Shown in pieces: positions 2,626 to 24,776 of a stretch of DNA of 24,776 nucleotides. A program made the position numbers and the translations under genes. This stretch comes from a virus. Lineage: Duplodnaviria; Heunggongvirae; Uroviricota; Caudoviricetes. Location of the stretch: the IMG/VR virus record IMGVR_UViG_2778261457_000006, positions 1-24,776 of that record; one strand, 5' to 3'. Numbering within the stretch: position 1 is the stretch's first letter; the number at the start of each line of letters is the position of its first letter. A model generated the notes under the pieces. It did not search any database. It had not been told where the DNA came from and saw nothing but the letters and a program-made list of their open reading frames with translations.

Positions 2626-2700
2626 GGGTCAGTCGTATAAAGGTCATTACGGAAGGCTGTTAACCTTCTTATCGTGGTTCGAGTCCACGCTGTCCCGCCA
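2626..2700 (+). tRNA. tRNA-like gene, predicted anticodon GTT (Asn), slightly degenerate
   Basis: Hand-folded cloverleaf: acceptor gggtcag/ctgtccc (6 of 7 pairs, one T-T), perfect anticodon stem gaagg/ccttc with loop ctGTTaa, perfect T-stem cgtgg/ccacg with T-loop ttcgagt, discriminator g and encoded CCA 2698-2700. D-stem has only 3 pairs. Confidence 0.55.
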
Positions 2701-2705
2701 AATAT

Positions 2706-2781
2706 GCTGGTTTAGCTCCAATGGTAGAGCAGTCGCCTTGTAAGCGAATGGGTAGCGGTTCAAGTCCGTTAACCAGCACCA
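2706..2781 (+). tRNA. tRNA-Thr (anticodon TGT)
   Basis: Hand-folded cloverleaf: perfect 7-bp acceptor gctggtt/aaccagc, D-stem gctc/gagc with GG in the D-loop, anticodon loop ctTGTaa (U33, A37), T-arm agcgg-ttcaagt-ccgtt, discriminator a and encoded CCA 2779-2781. Confidence 0.75.
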
Positions 2782-3023
2782 TAACTGAGCCGTAGCCACT
2801 GGCTATCCTGAACTCATCAGTGATAGTTATGCTGCAGCCTTCTACACATGACTTTCGTGAAAGCGGGCGGCAAGAGGTTGCGCTAACAACCTCCTGCCGT
2901 TTTGCCCGTGCATATCGGTCACGAACAAATCTGATTACTAAACACAGTAGCCTGGATTTGTTCTATCAGTAATCGACCTTATTCCTAATTAAATAGAGCA
3001 AATCCCCTTATTGGGGGTAAGAC

Positions 3024-3347
3024 ATGAAGATGCCAGAAAAACATGACCTGTTAGCCGCCATTCTCGCGGCAAAGGAACAAGGCATCGGGGCAATCCTTGC
3101 GTTTGCAATGGCGTACCTTCGCGGCAGATATAATGGCGGTGCGTTTACAAAAACAGTAATCGACGCAACGATGTGCGCCATTATCGCCTGGTTCATTCGT
3201 GACCTTCTCGACTTCGCCGGACTAAGTAGCAATCTCGCTTATATAACGAGCGTGTTCATCGGCTACATCGGTACTGACTCGATTGGTTCGCTTATCAAAC
3301 GCTTCGCTGCTAAAAAAGCCGGAGTAGAAGATGGTGGAAATCAATAA
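3024..3347 (+). CDS. S: holin S (107 aa) with dual-start motif Met1-Lys2-Met3
   Basis: Translation [34 protein letters not shown]... matches recalled lambda S107/S105. ATG AAG ATG dual start with an upstream cccc..gggg hairpin (sdi-like) at about 3003-3016. Confidence 0.93.
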
Positions 3348-3807
3348 TCAACGTAAGGCGTTCCTCGATATGCTGGCGTGGTCAGAGGGAACTGATAATG
3401 GACGGCAGAAAACCAGAAATCATGGTTATGACGTCATTGTAGGCGGAGAGCTATTCACTGATTACTCCGATCACCCTCGCAAACTTGTCACGCTAAACCC
3501 AAAACTCAAATCAACAGCTGCAGGTCGTTACCAGCTTCTTTCCCGTTGGTGGGATGCCTACCGCAAGCAGCTTGGCCTGAAAGACTTCTCTCCCAAAAGC
3601 CAGGACGCTGTTGCGCTGCAGCAGATTAAGGAGCGTGGCGCTTTACCGATGATTGATCGTGGTGATATTCGTCAGGCTATCGACCGTTGCAGCAATATCT
3701 GGGCTTCATTGCCGGGAGCTGGTTATGGTCAGTTCGAGCATAAGGCCGACAGTCTGATTTCAAAATTCAAAGAAGCAGGCGGAACGGTCAGAGAGATTGA
3801 GGTATGA
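3331..3807 (+). CDS. R: endolysin R (lytic transglycosylase, 158 aa)
   Basis: Translation [49 protein letters not shown]... matches recalled lambda R. Overlaps the S end as in lambda. Confidence 0.93.
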
Positions 3808-4262
3808 GCAGAGTAACCGCGATTATCTCCGCTCTGGTTATCTGCATCATCGTTTGCCTGTCATGGGCTGTTAATCATTACCGTGATAATGCCATCGCCT
3901 ACAAAGAACAGCGTGATAAAAAAGTCAGTGAGCTGAAGCAGGCGACCGCCACCATCTCTGACATGCAGCAGCGTCAGCGTGATGTTGCAGAACTTGACGC
4001 CAGATACACAAAGGAGCTTGCTGATGCTAACGCGACTATCGAAAGTCTCCGTGCTGATGTTTCTGCTGGTCGTAAGCGCCTGCAAGTCGCCGCCACCTGT
4101 GCAAAGTCAACGACCGGAGCCAGCGGCATGGGCGATGGAGAAAGCCCAAGACTTACAGCAGATGCTGAACTCAATTATTACCGTCTCCGAAGTGGAATCG
4201 ACAGGATAACCGCGCAGGTTAACTACTTGCAGGAATACATCAGGACTCAGTGCCTGAAATAA
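3804..4262 (+). CDS. Rz: spanin inner-membrane subunit Rz (152 aa)
   Basis: N-terminus [31 protein letters not shown]... matches recalled lambda Rz (N-terminal TM helix, then coiled coil). Central and C-terminal parts diverge from lambda. Confidence 0.88.
4024..4209 (+). CDS. Rz1: spanin outer-membrane lipoprotein Rz1 (about 61 aa), embedded in Rz in the +1 frame
   Basis: +1-frame ORF inside Rz. AAGGAG (4011-4016) 7 nt before ATG 4024. Signal peptide [20 protein letters not shown] with lipobox VSAC, then Pro-rich mature region [14 protein letters not shown]. The ORF track's 3979 start is probably too far upstream. Confidence 0.7.
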
Positions 4263-4465: not shown

Positions 4466-5008
4466 ATGAATTATCCAACTATCGTTGACGGCATTGATTT
4501 CAAAGAACTGGTTTTTATTACCAACAATGACCCTGTCACCGATTCATTTATGGTGGCGAAAGCATTTCGTAAGCGACATGACAACGTTGTGCGTGATGTA
4601 GAAAGAACTATCGCTGCTTGTCCTGAAGAGTTTGATACAAAACTCAATTTTGAGGTTTGCTATAAAAACAATGAGTTACAGAATGGTAAGCCACAAAAAT
4701 TCTATCGGCTACGTAAGGATGGGTTGATGCTTTTGGTTATGTCCTACACCAAAAAAGAAGCAATGCGTATCAAAATTGCTTACATCAACGCATTCAACTG
4801 GATGTACGCCATGCTTCAGGTTGGTCATCGTCAATTTGAAGAAGAGAGAAATGCCGTAATGCTGGAGTACATGAAAGAGAAGGATGTTGCCAGCATGTCA
4901 GGCCGCCTGCTTAATCGCTGGGGAAAAATTAAGAAGCCTCAGCTACTGGCGAGAATTGAACGCCTTGAACAGCACGGGCAAACCGTAATCCCCGGACTCA
5001 CCAATTAA
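4466..5008 (+). CDS. rha: Rha-family phage regulatory protein (180 aa)
   Basis: N-terminal ...ELVFITNNDPVTDSFMVAKAFRKRHDNVVRDVE... is the recalled Rha-family signature (F-KRHDNVLRDI). Confidence 0.75.
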   Translation: MNYPTIVDGIDFKELVFITNNDPVTDSFMVAKAFRKRHDNVVRDVERTIAACPEEFDTKLNFEVCYKNNELQNGKPQKFYRLRKDGLMLLVMSYTKKEAMRIKIAYINAFNWMYAMLQVGHRQFEEERNAVMLEYMKEKDVASMSGRLLNRWGKIKKPQLLARIERLEQHGQTVIPGLTN

Positions 5009-5166
5009 CGGCAGTACCACGAAACAACCCAAGCCAGTAAGTGGGGAAATAACACTGGCAGCCACTGAAAGATGAACCTCCAGCCTTATGGCAAAAAAGA
5101 TTCTTTGTGGTGGCGGACTGATGGAAAGACCTCCTAATCAAGCAACCACTCTACAGGGTCATAATT

Positions 5167-5538
5167 ATGAACGACCAGCAAATCGAAAAAGAAATCGTTG
5201 AGAAAGGCAAAACGGCGCCGCGCGTTACGCCAGACCATATCGAAGGCATTATTGCTCAGGAGGCATATTTCACAGCAGAGGATGGTGCCTTTGGCAAAGC
5301 CATAAAAGCGAAACATACTGGCGGAGAGGTAAACTACCAGCCGCACGAATCACTTTCTCTGCTGACGTTCTGCGTCCTGGTGCTGCGCAACGGCTTCACC
5401 GTCACCGGAGAGAGTGCCTGTGCAAGTCCGGAAAATTTTGATGCAGAAATTGGTCGGAAGATTGCCCGGCAGAATGCTGTAAACAAAATCTGGATGCTCG
5501 AAGGTTACTTGCTGAAGCAGAAGCTAAGCGAACAGTAG
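5167..5538 (+). CDS. Gp49-like protein (phage N4 gp49 / Sf6 gp66 family, 123 aa), function unknown
   Basis: Translation contains ...LLTFCVLVLRNGFTVTGESACASPENFDAEIGRKIARQNAVNKIWMLEGYLLKQ..., recalled as characteristic of this family, which often sits upstream of terS. Confidence 0.6.
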   Translation: MNDQQIEKEIVEKGKTAPRVTPDHIEGIIAQEAYFTAEDGAFGKAIKAKHTGGEVNYQPHESLSLLTFCVLVLRNGFTVTGESACASPENFDAEIGRKIARQNAVNKIWMLEGYLLKQKLSEQ

Positions 5539-5641
5539 TTATTACAAAAGCCATTCCCTACAGAGTGGCTTTGATAATGGCTTATACCCTACACGGGATA
5601 ACTTAACTGATATCCCTTTTAACGGATAAACGGAGCCAACA

Positions 5642-5884
5642 ATGGCAGAGATTATTCCCATGACTGAAGAACAGAAATTCAAGTTAGAAATTTACCGACT
5701 GCTATCTAAGAACAATTCAGCGGCAGAGGAAGCTTTTGCATTCATTGGTGCTGACCAGCTGAAACTGGAATTGTTCAAGTTGCACTACAACGATGGTGGT
5801 GCAAATCCAGACTTCACATCTCGCACTATCGAAGCGGTGCGTAAATCGAAGGAAGCGTTAGACCTGTTCACTACCGGAGCATGA
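5642..5884 (+). CDS. hypothetical protein (80 aa)
   Basis: ORF with GGAG about 7 nt upstream of the ATG; no family recognised. Confidence 0.45.
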   Translation: MAEIIPMTEEQKFKLEIYRLLSKNNSAAEEAFAFIGADQLKLELFKLHYNDGGANPDFTSRTIEAVRKSKEALDLFTTGA

Positions 5885-5913
5885 TGCTCAACCTGAAATA
5901 ACAACTAAGTGAG

Positions 5914-6408
5914 ATGAATATGGCAGCACCAAAGGGCAACCGATTTTGGGAGGCCCGCAGTAGTCATGGGCGAAACCCTAAATTCGAATCGCCTGAGGCG
6001 CTGTGGGCTGCTTGTTGTGAATACTTCGAGTGGGTGGAAACTAACCCGCTATGGGAGATGAAGGCGTTCTCGTATCAGGGTGAAGTGATACAAGAGCCTA
6101 TCGCCAAGATGCGAGCGATGACCATCACCGGACTCACTCTGTTCATTGATGTGACGCTTGAAACATGGCGCACATATCGCCTGCGAGAAGATTTATCTGA
6201 AGTCGTTACGCGAGCAGAGCAGGTCATCTACGACCAGAAATTCTCTGGCGCAGCCGCTGACCTTCTCAACGCTAATATCATCGCCCGTGATTTGGGCCTC
6301 AAAGAGCAGTCGCAAGTTGAAGACGTGACACCTGATAAGGGAGATCGCGATAAGCGACGCTCTCGTATCAAGGAGCTATTCAACCGTGGAACTGGACGCG
6401 ATTCTTGA
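5914..6408 (+). CDS. terminase small subunit (P22 gp3-like, 164 aa; alternative start at 5920)
   Basis: Translation ...[46 protein letters not shown]... matches recalled P22 gp3. 3' end overlaps terL. Confidence 0.88.
6188..6209 (+). other. candidate P22-type pac site (AAGATTTATCTGAAGTCGTTAC) inside terS
   Basis: The sequence gaagatttatctgaagtcgttacgcg lies near codon 92 of terS and matches my recollection of the P22 pac site, which lies inside gene 3. Recalled from memory, not verified. Confidence 0.5.
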
Positions 6409-7885
6409 TAACTTGAGCGACGAAGAGCAAATCGAATTGCTCGAGCTACTCGAAGAAGAAGAGAACTACCGTAACACACACCTGCTATATGAATTTACGC
6501 CATACAGCAAACAGCGTGAGTTCATCGACGCCGGGCATGACTATCCAGAGCGCTGTTTTATGGCTGGTAACCAGCTTGGTAAGTCATTTACTGGTGCTGC
6601 TGAAGTCGCGTTTCACCTTACCGGGCGTTATCCGGGCACAAAAGGCTATCCTGCTGATGGTAAATATGGCGGTGAGTGGAAAGGTAAGCGTTTTTATGAG
6701 CCTGTTGTCTTTTGGATTGGTGGCGAGACAAACGAGACTGTAACCAAAACGACTCAACGCATCCTGTGTGGTCGTATCGAAGAGAATGGTGAGCCAGGCT
6801 ACGGTTCCATACCGAAAGAAGACATCATTAGCTGGAAGAAGTCTCCTTTCTTTCCGAACCTTGTTGATCATCTTCTGGTTAAGCATCACACGGCTGATGG
6901 CGTTGAAGATGGCATTTCAATCTGCTACTTCAAGCCATACTCGCAAGGCCGTGCTCGCTGGCAGGGTGATACAATCCATGGCGTGTGGTTTGACGAAGAA
7001 CCACCATACAGCATTTATGGCGAAGGCCTTACCCGTACCAACAAATACGGGCAATTCTCAATTCTGACGTTTACCCCGCTGATGGGGATGTCTGACGTTG
7101 TTACCAAGTTCCTGAAGAATCCCAGCAAGTCGCAGAAAGTGGTCAACATGACCATCTACGACGCTGAGCACTACACCGACGAGCAAAAAGAGCAAATCAT
7201 CGCATCCTATCCCGAGCATGAGAGAGAGGCGCGTGCTCGCGGTATTCCTACGATGGGTAGCGGTCGAATCTTCCAGATACCGGAAGAGACGATTAAGTGT
7301 CAGCCGTTCGAGTGTCCGGATCACTTCTACGTAATTGGCGGGATGGATTTCGGATGGGATCACCCACAGGCGCAGGTTCAGCTTTGGTGGGATAAGGACG
7401 CAGACATAATCTACCTTTCACGCGTGTGGAAGGCGAAAGAAAAGACAGCCGTTCAGGCGTGGGGAGCCGTTAAACCATGGGCGCATAAAGTGCCAACCGC
7501 ATGGCCCCATGACGGAAACCAGCACGAGAAGGGCGGCGGTGAGCAGCTCAAAGGGCAGTATGCGGACGCTGGATTTATGATGTTGCAGGAGCATGCGACA
7601 TGGCCTGATGGCGGCAATGCTGTTGAGCCTGGAATCACTGAATTGCGCGACATGATGCTAGATGGTCGCTTCAAGGTATTCAACACCTGTGAACCATTCT
7701 TTGAGGAATTCCGCCTCTATCACCGTGATGAAAACGGGAAGATCGTCAAGCTTAACGACGACGTTCTCTCAGCCGTTCGCTATGCATACATGATGCGCCG
7801 CTTCGCCAAAATGATGCGCGACATCAAAAAACCAAAAGAGAAAAAGATACCAGCCCCAATCAGGCCCATCGCACGGAGAACTTAA
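6386..7885 (+). CDS. terminase large subunit (P22 gp2-like, 499 aa)
   Basis: Full-length match to recalled P22 gp2 ([37 protein letters not shown]...). Walker A-like GNQLGKS. Confidence 0.93.
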
Positions 7886-10051
7886 ATGGCCGACGAAAAC
7901 AGACTCAATTCCATTCTGTGTAAGTTTGACGCGGACTGGATGGCGAGCGATGAAGCCAGAACCGAGGCGACAAATGACCTGTATTTTAGCCGAGTGTCGC
8001 AATGGGATGACTGGCTATCAAACTACACCACCCTGCAATATCGCGGACAATTCGATGTTGTTCGCCCGGTGGTCAGGAAGCTGGTCGCAGAGATGCGCCG
8101 GAACCCTATCGACGTTCTCTTCCGACCCAAAGACGGCGCTAATCCTGATGCAGCCGATGTGTTGATGGGGATGTATCGTACTGATATGCGCCATAATACG
8201 GCAAAAATTGCCGTTAACGTTGGCGTTCGTGAGCAGATAGAGTCAGGCGTTGGTGCATGGCGTCTGGTCACGCAGTACGAAGACAACGATCCAACAAGCA
8301 ACAATCAGGTAATCCGACGCCTGCCAATCCATGAAGCCTGCTCACACGTCATATGGGACGCCAACAGCAAGCAGATGGATAAGAGCGACGCTAAGCACTG
8401 CACGGTGATTAACGCCTTGTCACGCAATGGCTGGAAAGAGTTCGCAGAGGATTACGGTATTGATCCGGATACCTTGCCATCTTTCCAGAATCCGAACGAC
8501 ACATGGCTGTTTCCGTGGGTATCGAATGATGTCGTCTACGTCGCTGAGTATTACGAGGTAGAAGAGAAGAAGGAGAAAGTCTTCATCTACCGCGACCCGC
8601 TGACAGGTGAGCCGGTCAGCTATTACCAGCAGGATATCAAAGACGTCATCGACGACCTGGCTAATCGTGGATTCATTAAGGTAGCAGAGCGTAAGGTCAA
8701 GCGTCGGCGTGTGTATAAGTCGATCATCACCTGCACGCAGATACTGAAAGACCGCGAGAAGATAGCTGGAGAGCATATCCCAATCGTTCCTGTGTACGGC
8801 GAATGGTCATTCGCTGGTGACAAGGAGTGCTACGAGGGCGTGGTAAGGCTGACGAAAGACGGTCAACGCCTTCGTAACATGATCATGTCGTTCAACGCCG
8901 ATATTGTTGCTCGTTCACCGAAGAAGAAACCTACCTTCTTCCCTGAGCAAATCGAAGGCTACGAATACATGTACGGTGGAAATGATGACTATCCGTACTA
9001 TCTGCAGAACAGGACCGATGAAAACGGTAACGACCTGCCGATTGGTCCAATCTCCTACATGGAAAACCCTGAAGTGCCGCAAGCCAACGCTTACATGCTT
9101 GAGGCTGCCACCAACGCAGTGAAAGAGGTGGCTAGTCTTGGCGTGGATGCGCAGGCGGCAAACTCTCAGGTCGCTTTCGATACCGTCAATCAACTGAACA
9201 TGCGGGCAGATCTTGAGACATACGTGTTTCAGGATAACCTGGCTACCGCAATGCGACGTGATGGCGAGATTTATGCCTCAATGGTCAACGATATTTATGA
9301 CGTTCCTCGTCATGTAACGCTGACACTTGAAGATGGAAGCGAGAAAGACGTTCAACTCTATGCGCAAGTTGTAGATTACCAGTCTGGCAATGTGGTCACA
9401 CTCAACGATATTCGCGGTCGCTATGAGTGCTATACAGACGTTGGACCATCCTTCCAGAGCATGAAGGAACAGAACCGCGCAGAGATTCAGGAATTGCTCA
9501 CCAAGGTTCCGCAAGGTACTCCAGAGTTCCAGATGCTGATGCTGCAATACTTCACGCTCCTTGACGGTAAAGGCGTCGAGATGATGCGAGAGTACGCGAA
9601 CAAGCAACTGGTGATGATGGGGCTGAAGAAACCAGAAACACCTGAAGAGATGGAGATGGTACAACAGGCGCAACAGCAGCCGCAGCAGCCATCAGCAGAG
9701 CAAATTCAGGCGCAGGGTATCCTTCTGCAAGGCCAGGCTGAATTGCTCAAGGCAGAGAACCAACAAGCGCAGATTCAGGTTGAAGCCGCCAAGGTTGAAG
9801 CCCAAAACCAACTCAACGCCGCGAAGATTGCAGAAATCTTCAACAATATGGACCTCGACAAGCAGGCAGAACTGCGTGAGTACCTCAAGCTCGTAGGTCA
9901 ATTCCAGCAACAGCGCAGCAAAGATGCTCGTGCTAACGCTGAGCTGCTTCTTAAAGATGCAGACCAGACTCATTCACAACGCATGGATTTCGCGAATCTT
10001 ATGCGTCAAGTTCAAATCCCCTCCGGCGGAGTAGCCGAGACACCTCAATAA
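7886..10051 (+). CDS. portal protein (P22 gp1-like, 721 aa)
   Basis: Full-length match to recalled P22 portal (..[32 protein letters not shown].., C-terminal Gln-rich barrel region). Confidence 0.93.
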
Positions 10052-19972: not shown

Positions 19973-20233
19973 TTAGTTGCTGTCTTTTTTATATAGCTCC
20001 TTGAGCGTATCAAAGACAATTTTCTTAACCATATCAGATTGTTGTTCTGCCATACGCTCTGCATCGTCAATGTAAACTGATGCAGAGCTTTGTTTATCCA
20101 ATGATTCTTCAATCGCTGCAATTATCTCTGAGTTCAGCGACCTGTTATTCATCTTCGCGCGCTGCTTAATTTTCGCGTGGAGTTCATGCGGAAGTCTCAA
20201 GTGAAACTGCGCCTCGTCGTATTTGCTGTACAT
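19973..20233 (-). CDS. mnt: Mnt-like ribbon-helix-helix repressor (about 86 aa; upstream alternative start at 20266)
   Basis: Minus-strand translation MYSKYDEAQFHLRLPHELHAKIKQRAKMNNRSLNSEIIAAIEESLDK...YIDDAERMAEQQSDMVKKIVFDTLKELYKKDSN aligns with recalled P22 Mnt along its length. GAGG lies 8 nt upstream of the internal ATG. Confidence 0.8.
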   Translation of the reverse strand: MYSKYDEAQFHLRLPHELHAKIKQRAKMNNRSLNSEIIAAIEESLDKQSSASVYIDDAERMAEQQSDMVKKIVFDTLKELYKKDSN

Positions 20234-20306
20234 CCTTGATGCCTCACCAGTTGGGTGGAATGGCATCGTAACCTACTGGATAAATACTCAATAGTACCAT
20301 TTCGGT

Positions 20307-22377: not shown

Positions 22378-23532
22378 TCATGCTTTTCCGTCAATGAAAT
22401 CAGCCCACCACTGCATCATTTCTCTGCGCTTATCCAGATACTGAGCATGGTTGTAAATCCCGCGCACAGATCCACCGTTGGCATGCGCCAGTTGAACCTC
22501 AATCGCGTCAGCAGGCCATTCGTGCTCGTTCATAATCGTGCTGAATTCATGCCTGAATCCGTGTCCGCTTTCCAGACCCTCATATCCGATTTGTTTGATC
22601 ACAAGTAGTACAGCGTTCTCGCAAATTGGCTTCTTCTTATCGTTGCGCCCGGCAAAAACATACTCTGATACTGGTTTAGTGATTGAGCTTAGCGTAGTGA
22701 GAAGTTCAACCACCTGGTCTGACATCGGGACCACATGAATTTTGCGTCCCTTCATCACACTGGCGTCGATGGTGATAATCCTGTTTTCAAAATCGACGTT
22801 CTTCCATTGCATGGAGCGAAGCTCTTTCGTTCTTAGGGCTGTGTAGCGTAAAACTTTGGTCGCAATGAGCGATACGATACTTCCTGAAAATGTTGCCAGT
22901 GCTTTGTTGAATGCAGGGATCTGGTCTGCTGGAAGAAACGGGAAGTTCTTCTTGCGGTATCCTTTCATGGCGTCTGCAAGGTCAGGTGCCGGGTTATATT
23001 TAGCCCTTCCGGTGACAATAGCGTAACGGAAAACCTCGCCGCATCTTCTGCGGGCTTTGTTGGCTCGTTCCATTGCACCGCGATCTTCAAATCTGCGGAT
23101 TACTTCCAGCAGTTGCATCGGCTCAATATCCTGAATCTCAAGACCGCCGATGATGGGTAAAATGTCGTCATCAAACATTTTGGCAAGCTCAGTTGCATAG
23201 CCTACTGACCATACTTGCTTCTTGTGCTCGTACCATTCCTTGTAAATTGCACTAAAGGAATTGTTGTTAGACGAAGCCTTTTTCGCTTTTACCGGATCGA
23301 TGCCAACCGAGATGTCTTTCCTCGCGGTCCATGCTTTATCTCTTGCCTCCTGCAAAGTCATTAGCGGATATTTTCCTACGGTCAGGATTTTCTCCTTACC
23401 GTCAATCTTGTAGCGAAGCTGCCATACCTTTTTCCCTGACACAGGGACATAAAGGTACAGGCCATTACCATCGAGTAGGCGGTATGGTTTTTCTTTCGGC
23501 TTTGCTGCTTCAATCTGCTTAACGGTGAGCAT
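22378..23532 (-). CDS. int: tyrosine integrase, P4 family (about 384 aa from ATG 23532; ORF extends to GTG 23568)
   Basis: N-terminus MLTVKQIEAAKPKEKPYRLLDGNGLYLYVPVSGKKVWQLRYKIDGKEK is the P4-type arm-binding domain. C-terminal ..GHGFRHEF.. and ..LAHANGGSVRGIYNHAQY.. carry the catalytic His/Arg/Tyr region. Resembles my recollection of E. coli K-12 IntS next to argW. Confidence 0.9.
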   Translation of the reverse strand: MLTVKQIEAAKPKEKPYRLLDGNGLYLYVPVSGKKVWQLRYKIDGKEKILTVGKYPLMTLQEARDKAWTARKDISVGIDPVKAKKASSNNNSFSAIYKEWYEHKKQVWSVGYATELAKMFDDDILPIIGGLEIQDIEPMQLLEVIRRFEDRGAMERANKARRRCGEVFRYAIVTGRAKYNPAPDLADAMKGYRKKNFPFLPADQIPAFNKALATFSGSIVSLIATKVLRYTALRTKELRSMQWKNVDFENRIITIDASVMKGRKIHVVPMSDQVVELLTTLSSITKPVSEYVFAGRNDKKKPICENAVLLVIKQIGYEGLESGHGFRHEFSTIMNEHEWPADAIEVQLAHANGGSVRGIYNHAQYLDKRREMMQWWADFIDGKA

Positions 23533-23693
23533 GGGTAAAAATCCGGTGGGTAAAATTATTTTATCCACTTTTTACCCGTCATGGAGTGCGGCTGTCAACG
23601 ATCTGACGCGAACCATTACGAACTGTGAATCTGCGGAAGGCTTGATATTCAGGGAATTTTGCGGACTGGTACGGATGGGAGCGAACTGATAAA

Positions 23694-23768
23694 TGGTGTC
23701 CCCTGCAGGAATCGAACCTGCAATTAGCCCTTAGGAGGGGCTCGTTATATCCATTTAACTAAGAGGAC
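23694..23768 (-). tRNA. argW: tRNA-Arg (anticodon CCT), host argW
   Basis: Reverse complement GTCCTCTTAGTTAAATGGATATAACGAGCCCCTCCTAAGGGCTAATTGCAGGTTCGATTCCTGCAGGGGACACCA folds as a canonical cloverleaf with anticodon loop CTCCTAA. Matches recalled E. coli argW. Confidence 0.9.
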
Positions 23769-23843: not shown

Positions 23844-24776
23844 TTATGCTGGGTTTTTATCATTTTTCTTAATGTTTTCCGCACGTTCTGCTTTTTGGCG
23901 TGCTTCTGCTTTACGCTTGTTGCTCATGTCGTTACGAATCTGTGCATGACTCATTAACGCGAAGATAAAGGTGCCGCCGCAGATGTTCCCCGCTAAAGTA
24001 GGTAGTGCGAAGGGCCAGATGAAATCGCTCCAGTGCAGCGTGCCGTTAAACACCAGATAGAGGATTTCAACAGAACCGACAACGATGTGGGTGGTGTCAC
24101 CCAGTGCAATAAGCCAGGTCATCAATATAATCACCACAATCTTTGCCGCACCCGCAGCAGGAAACATCCAAACCATAGTGGCGATCAGCCAGCCGGAAAT
24201 GATCGCGTTGGCAAACATCTCGCTGGGGGTGTTCTTCATCACATCCATGCCGATTTTGACAAATGCATCGCGAGTTTCTTCATTGAAGATAGGCATATAT
24301 TCAAATGCCCATGCAGCAATACCTGTCCCGAGAATATTACCCAGCAGCACGACGCCCCATAATCGCATAAGTAAGCCGACGTTGCTCATTGTCGGTTTTT
24401 GCATGACGGGTAGTACCGCAGTCACGGTGTTTTCGGTAAATAATTGCTGGCGGGCCATAATGACGATAATAAAACCAAAGGTATAACCGAGATTCTCCAG
24501 TAAGAAGCTGCCTGGCACTCCTTCCAGTTCGACATGAAATATCCCTTTTGCCAGTAGCGAAGCGCCCATCGACAGACCCGCCGCAATGGCTGACCACAGT
24601 AGCGCCATTGCGTCGCGTTCCAGCTCTTTTTCACCATCCTGGCGGATATGCTCATGAATTGCCATCGCCCGGGAGGGGAGTCGATCTTCATCTATTTCTA
24701 TTTTTTTGCCGCGCTCTTTTTCTTCGCTCTCAACTTCAATTTCGTCGCTGTGTTGATCAATTTTGTCGTTGTCCAT
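23844..24776 (-). CDS. yfdC: inner membrane protein YfdC (formate/nitrite transporter family, 310 aa), host gene
   Basis: Minus-strand ORF ending exactly at the window edge; polytopic membrane protein. Matches recalled E. coli YfdC, which neighbours argW in K-12. Confidence 0.85.
   Translation of the reverse strand: MDNDKIDQHSDEIEVESEEKERGKKIEIDEDRLPSRAMAIHEHIRQDGEKELERDAMALLWSAIAAGLSMGASLLAKGIFHVELEGVPGSFLLENLGYTFGFIIVIMARQQLFTENTVTAVLPVMQKPTMSNVGLLMRLWGVVLLGNILGTGIAAWAFEYMPIFNEETRDAFVKIGMDVMKNTPSEMFANAIISGWLIATMVWMFPAAGAAKIVVIILMTWLIALGDTTHIVVGSVEILYLVFNGTLHWSDFIWPFALPTLAGNICGGTFIFALMSHAQIRNDMSNKRKAEARQKAERAENIKKNDKNPA

Follow-up and report, generated by a model that had tools for sequence, protein, structure and literature searches.

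The terminase gene terS of a P22-like prophage carries, at the position and in the orientation that it has in P22, a 22-bp stretch (GAAGATTTATCTGAAGTCGTTA) which is, base for base, a true copy of the already well-known pac site of P22. The window analysed here, a stretch of viral DNA of 24,776 nucleotides, is to judge from its sequence the late half of a Lederbergvirus (P22-like) prophage integrated at the tRNA-Arg gene argW of Escherichia coli or a close relative. Much the best explanation of the locus, and one that we consider highly probable, is that this is the terS gene of an argW Lederbergvirus prophage with a true P22 pac, whose packaging mechanism can be read across from P22. What is found is a textbook P22 pac, accompanied by the terminase that belongs to it, in a coliphage related to P22, a combination that is already known and in which nothing departs from known biology.

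An earlier note on this DNA had quoted a 26-mer (GAAGATTTATCTGAAGTCGTTACGCG) as the P22 pac site. This string has a single exact occurrence in the window (6187-6212, plus strand), within the open reading frame 5914-6408, and none of 100 dinucleotide-preserving shuffles contained a match, even when up to three mismatches were allowed. Its first 22 bases are indeed those of the published site, but the last four (CGCG) lie outside it. The P22 reference comes from a feature note in GenBank and from three later papers in which pac is quoted; the pac site and the gp3/gp2 terminase of P22 are credited to Wu et al. (2002), as relayed by PMC4837284, PMC8022706 and GenBank FJ000341. In FJ000341 (phage g341c), nt 268-289 of gene 3 are marked as a putative pac, 2 nt different from ‘pacP22 (gaagatttatctgaagtcgtta)’. 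The site of UAB_Phi20 is given in PMC4837284 as GAAGACTTATCTGAGGTCGTTA, ‘two bases’ off P22, which implies the same gaagatttatctgaagtcgtta for P22. The native P22 pac with which the experiments of PMC11260489 were made is written in its Table 1 as [GAG]AAGATTTATCTGAAGTC[GTT], and a 12-bp consensus, AAGATTTATCTG, is reported in PMC11226127. In P22-pac-wobble, pac is altered at wobble positions (GAG AGGACTTGTCGGAAGTC).

The comparison with published P22 pac that the note had proposed as a check was made, and all 22 bases are identical; the place in the gene corresponds to that in P22, and so does the orientation. Counted from an ATG at 5920, position 6187 is nt 268 of terS (6187-5920+1), and the site occupies nt 268-289 of the coding strand, where its codons specify residues E90-D-L-S-E-V-V-(T) of TerS. 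An annotated pac feature of epsilon34 occupies the same nt 268-289 as the site in g341c and in the window. Positions 6185-6204 read GAGAAGATTTATCTGAAGTC and agree throughout, GAG flank included, with the native pac entry in that Table 1, and the pac nucleotides scored as important (within GAG-AAGATTTATCTGAAGTC) are all present. Extended to 6185-6208 (GAGAAGATTTATCTGAAGTCGTTA), the window fits all four source versions (FJ000341, PMC4837284, PMC11260489 and PMC11226127). The 17-nt core is moreover the only match in the window, on either strand, to the pseudo-pac regular expression of PMC11226127, and no second or inverted pac-like site was found on either strand of the window at up to three mismatches to the 17-mer.

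The borders of the ‘22 bp’ vary by source, being nt 268-289 in FJ000341 and PMC4837284 and nt 265-286 in PMC9611059, which quotes a 22-mer oligonucleotide (AGAGAAGATTTATCTGAAGTCG) in a frame offset by 3 bp; the pac mark in the phage L record covers nt 264-268 only. In the frame of PMC9611059 the window agrees at 21/22 bases, the sole mismatch being the outermost one, 6184 (A->C), 3 bp upstream of the 268-289 22-mer. This change is synonymous (AGA->CGA), and C is the commoner state: of 83 aligned loci, made up of 80 IMG/VR relatives, two P22 records and JEP4, 69 have it. It is also one of two synonymous positions, with 6219 A->G, at which the window differs from P22 across the predicted cleavage zone. 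Two deposited P22-type genome records, LC730322.1 (P22) and MN161573.1, have as their base 1 nt 265 of gene 3 (AGAGAAGATTT...), so that the 22-bp pac begins 3 bp further on, and these circles were presumably opened at pac by their depositors.

Table 1. Features of the window, in order of position
Feature	Position	Strand	Evidence
tRNA-Asn(GTT), phage-borne	2626-2700		
tRNA-Thr(TGT), phage-borne	2706-2781		
S holin	3024-3347	+	106/107 aa identical to lambda; Pfam
R endolysin	3331-3807	+	155/158 aa identical to lambda; PDB 1AM7, E 7e-105; Pfam
Rz	3804-4262	+	129/152 aa vs P22 gene 15, 94/153 vs lambda Rz; Pfam
Candidate embedded Rz1	inside +1-frame ORF 3979-4209	+	lipobox-like LLVVSAC
Rha-family gene	4466-5008	+	Pfam
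N4 gp49/Sf6 gp66-family gene (PF13876), 123 aa	5167-5538	+	Pfam
DUF2560/P22 ORF80 homologue	5642-5884	+	Pfam
P22 block, 95-100% nt identity (terS and TerL ATPase domain)	~5840-7300	+	sliding-window identity, blastn segments
terS (P22 gene 3 homologue), 162 aa	5920-6408	+	Pfam GP3_package (PF16677), E 6e-33
Central terS segment including pac (~aa 39-102), P22-type	6035-6225	+	sliding identity, alignment
Predicted series-initiation cleavage zone (from P22), ~120 bp centred on pac	6140-6260		PMC11226127, PMC11260489
pac site, 22 bp	6187-6208	+	22/22 vs pacP22 (GenBank FJ000341)
pac core, 17 nt (AAGATTTATCTGAAGTC)	6188-6204	+	same as native P22 pac, Table 1 of PMC11260489
12-bp consensus inside the core (AAGATTTATCTG)	6188-6199	+	same as PMC11226127
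terL (P22 gene 2 homologue), 499 aa	6386-7885	+	Pfam Terminase_6N and Terminase_6C (PF03237, PF17289)
Portal (P22 gene 1 homologue)	7886-10051	+	Pfam P22_portal, E 3.5e-162
intS-type integrase, intact	22378-23568	-	Pfam integrase
tRNA-Arg(CCT)	23694-23768	-	ARAGORN, Rfam
Host yfdC	23844-24776	-	Pfam Form_Nir_trans

The start of terS had previously been placed at 5914, where an in-frame ATG does open the longest reading frame (164 aa). The true start, however, is likely to be the ATG at 5920, since P22 gp3 is annotated from the corresponding codon, the crystallised gp3 begins with the residue that it encodes, and a GAG lies 6 nt upstream. Nucleotide identity of the gene to P22 gene 3 is 98.2%, and its product matches the crystallised gp3 (PDB 3P9A) at 161/162 residues (E 4.7e-108), the sole difference being A41T. 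Residues 140-162, the C-terminal tail through which TerS binds TerL (PMC9611059), are identical to those of P22. The terS gene of Escherichia phage JEP4 is 100% identical in nucleotides, pac and the T41 codon included, and JEP4 has been plaque-purified and propagated on E. coli (PMC8425383); the exact combination of this TerS (T41) with this pac therefore exists in a viable phage. Purified P22 TerS has never been seen to bind a pac oligonucleotide specifically in vitro (PMC9611059), so that even in P22 the case for pac recognition is a genetic one. Around terS, promoter-like and terminator-like sites were no commoner than in shuffles, and the antisense ORFs inside terS (e.g. 6228-6479, minus strand) have nothing that indicates a gene.

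The exact 22-mer stands at the same offset in all 80 of the closest IMG/VR relatives of terS. At megablast level terS matched 113 phage records, mostly of Salmonella phages, and the P22-type central terS segment is present in 128/5426 complete E. coli genomes. Phages L, g341c, epsilon34 and UPF_BP1 depart from P22 pac at two wobble positions and SE16 at one, and the sites of Emek, IME10 and a Proteus phage are further from P22 than these. In the foremost alternative, the 22-mer is a mere passenger, conserved as coding sequence for E90-T97 (the gene as a whole being 98% identical to gene 3), within a cryptic or defective prophage in which no packaging starts at pac. Among 67 distinct P22-type terS sequences, third positions vary at 2/7 sites inside pac as against 62/155 outside it (Fisher p = 0.70, on too few sites), and with no detectable excess of synonymous conservation in pac the comparative data give no independent support for the site. 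Many E. coli prophages are defective, and this one could be as well, because only its late half falls within the window, with neither early genes nor immunity region nor second attachment site in view. Yet every late-gene ORF from holin through tailspike is intact and of the expected length, the integrase is intact, and the identical terS allele occurs in a propagating phage, JEP4. Even in a defective prophage, moreover, a superinfecting phage with P22 specificity would still be able to use the site as a substrate. Taken with these points, the passenger reading appears improbable, and a terS gene with a true P22 pac is preferred.

The match of terS and terL to P22 gp3 and gp2 was confirmed for the second gene too, although with more divergence than in TerS. 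The 5' end of terL overlaps the 3' end of terS by 23 nt, and TerL is identical to gp2 at 460/497 residues (93%). Only 2 differences fall within residues 1-316, with one substitution in the TerS-binding region (residues 1-58), and the ATPase domain is ~99% identical to that of gp2. Most of the 37 differences lie in the C-terminal nuclease domain, which matches PDB 4DKW with E 5.8e-127. The portal, which is the headful sensor in P22-type packaging, agrees with P22 gp1 at 565/725 residues and the coat with its P22 counterpart at 316/431. Headful size and cut pattern may differ from those of P22, since the TerL nuclease domain, portal and coat have diverged.

This divergence gives rise to a second alternative, in which the site is present but terminase specificity or cut pattern has shifted, through A41T or through divergence of the TerL nuclease domain or portal, and is no longer interchangeable with that of P22. 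T41 is rare, being found in 1 of the 80 close IMG/VR relatives (the others have A41), the C-terminal domain of TerL holds most of its differences from gp2, and the divergent allele of IME10 demonstrates that the central terS segment changes between lineages. On the other hand, only one of the 162 residues is altered, and conservatively; the phage's own pac is intact, and any phage has to recognise the site from which it packages; and JEP4 has the same combination of T41 and pac. Furthermore, it is TerS, and not the nuclease domain, to which pac specificity is attributed in the P22 system (PMC9611059). A shift of this kind is accordingly rated as very unlikely.

Upstream of terS the window has a more composite character. 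Nucleotide identity to lambda at the level of 93.6% spans 2783-4073 and stops inside Rz, which is a lambda/P22 hybrid with a 3' part ~85% identical in nucleotides to P22 gene 15. The interval between Rz and terS (4466-5884) has partial nucleotide similarity to P22 ORF201 and ORF80, with no similar DNA in P22 at the position of the N4 gp49/Sf6 gp66-family gene (5167-5538). The earlier note had described a lambda-type lysis cassette joined to a P22-type packaging module between Rz and terS. Lambda-like S and R genes and a P22-type packaging module are present, but the placing of the joint is imprecise: lambda identity ends at 4073 within a gene whose 3' part is P22-like, three genes intervene between Rz and terS, and the block of at least 95% identity to P22 begins only at ~5840 and ends at ~7300, inside terL. 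As Rz is hybrid, three genes intervene and P22 itself has a lambda-like holin and Rz, no single lambda/P22 joint can be drawn. Further upstream, the Q antiterminator region (2342-2623) matches the lambda DNA that follows Q at 98.6% identity, and the phage tRNA pair lies between it and the lambda-like holin region, a place where lambda has no tRNA. Lambda-type cohesive-end packaging, with the pac-like string irrelevant, might be suspected from the near identity of S and R to lambda, but deserves almost no credence, being contradicted by the gene content (a GP3_package and Terminase_6N/6C terminase and a P22-type portal by Pfam, these being the window's only terminase-family matches, with no Nu1/gpA-type lambda terminase), by the end of lambda homology at 4073 and by the pac-type submolar restriction fragments, and lack of cos ends, of the module relatives UAB_Phi20 (PMC4837284) and L (PMC8022706).

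Downstream of the terminase genes, the window contains a P22-type virion set of intact ORFs identified by Pfam: portal, scaffold, coat, gp4, gp10, needle, gp14, gp7, gp20, gp16 and a tailspike with a head-binding domain. These are in P22 order and collinear with P22 and IME10 by blastn. Just upstream of the tailspike gene lies a gene for an Arc/Mnt-type ribbon-helix-helix repressor (97 aa, 19973-20266, minus strand). No ant, arc or sieA is visible between gene 16 and the tailspike, from which it follows that the immI region is reduced relative to P22. Over most of its length the window has ~95-97% nucleotide identity with phage IME10 and with argW prophages, among them the one in E. coli W, whose annotation has the same integrase/tRNA-Arg/yfdC arrangement; the host flank there continues in the order yfdC, mlaA, fadL. 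The integrase sits at the tailspike end beside argW, and both the late operon and pac point into the host flank. Read in the plus direction, pac is followed by the late genes, ~17.6 kb of prophage in all, and then by yfdC and beyond. Rfam, at gathering threshold over the whole window, returned three tRNAs and no other family.

Outside ~5840-7300, nucleotide identity to P22 falls to ~65-88%, which suggests that the packaging-initiation segment, to go by its sequence, was recently exchanged between Salmonella and E. coli phages. The comparison with IME10, the closest coliphage overall, points to a smaller unit of variation. Against IME10, identity drops to ~60% in a patch of ~190 bp (6035-6225) and is 93-100% nearly everywhere else. 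The IME10 sequence at the place of pac is GAAGGTTTTTCTGACGTCACAT, with 7/22 differences from pacP22, although it still fits the degenerate pseudo-pac pattern of PMC11226127. Because pac and the surrounding protein segment diverge together in this patch, site and segment vary together between lineages, and the window has the P22 allele. It can be proposed that pac and residues ~39-102 of TerS form one co-transferred specificity cassette, swapped by recombination within coliphage modules that are otherwise 95-100% identical. P22 specificity would hence be shared across genera, with IME10-type phages carrying another allele. We put forward this idea tentatively and give it slightly less than an even chance. 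Domain-level horizontal exchange of terS in P22-like phages was reportedly described by Leavitt and co-workers in 2013. Were the cassette to be real, it would be mostly confirmatory, and in-situ packaging would mobilise the yfdC-mlaA-fadL side of argW.

The identity of site, proteins and arrangement is observed; all activity is extrapolated from P22. Series-initiation cuts of P22 fall within ~120 bp around pac (PMC11226127, PMC11260489), and packaging proceeds along whichever strand carries pac as AAGATTTATCTG (PMC11226127). P22 pac needs hardly any flanking sequence to function and drives directional transfer of downstream markers (PMC11260489), and wild-type P22 excises late and performs lateral transduction (PMC8575938). 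From this behaviour (PMC11260489, PMC11226127, PMC8575938), P22-specific headful packaging and the potential for generalized transduction may be expected on good grounds. After induction or infection, a ring of TerS, attached by its C-terminal tail to TerL, would recognise pac on concatemeric or still-integrated DNA, and TerL would cut within ~120 bp around the site. DNA would then be pumped into the procapsid in the plus direction (terS, terL, portal and onwards as far as the tailspike) until the head is full, as sensed by the portal, whereupon a cut without sequence preference would end the round and the next would begin. Virion DNA would be circularly permuted and terminally redundant, packaging specificity would be interchangeable with that of P22, and pac-like host sequences would seed generalized transduction. 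Packaging that began before excision would carry intS-argW-yfdC and host DNA beyond (the yfdC-mlaA-fadL flank), and the prophage in the window is probably capable of such lateral transduction.

The value of the site is largely one of annotation, in that the argW prophage can be described as a predicted pac-type headful packager of P22 specificity. Permuted virion DNA, generalized transduction from P22-like pseudo-pac sites and directional (lateral) transduction past yfdC are the corresponding predictions. These are relevant to the risk of gene transfer, for example where a phage cocktail includes JEP4 or another relative. The presence of a P22 pac in a coliphage terS opens no new biological question.

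Compared with known systems, the window shares with P22 the same 22-bp site at nt 268-289 of gene 3 in the same orientation, the terS/terL overlap and the gene order ORF80-3-2-1-8-5. Unlike P22, it has T41 in TerS, the synonymous change at 6184 and the lambda R endolysin instead of gp19, and its identity to P22 is 73-82% in the TerL nuclease domain, portal and coat. Whereas P22 integrates at thrW, the prophage of the window is integrated at argW of an E. coli host, with its integrase at the tailspike end. JEP4 (MT740315; Lederbergvirus, from chicken faeces) has an identical terS but is a free, propagated phage, in contrast to the integrated prophage described here. IME10 and the argW prophage of E. 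coli W have in common with the window the integration site and the lambda-type S and R genes, although the E. coli W locus is without the exact 22-mer. In L, ST64T, epsilon34, g341c and UAB_Phi20, pac, annotated or published as P22-like, is GAAGACTTATCTGAGGTCGTTA at the same position in the gene, with two wobble differences from P22 where the window has none; digests of these phages contain submolar fragments of the pac type, and the virion DNA of L (PMC8022706) and UAB_Phi20 (PMC4837284) is circularly permuted and terminally redundant.
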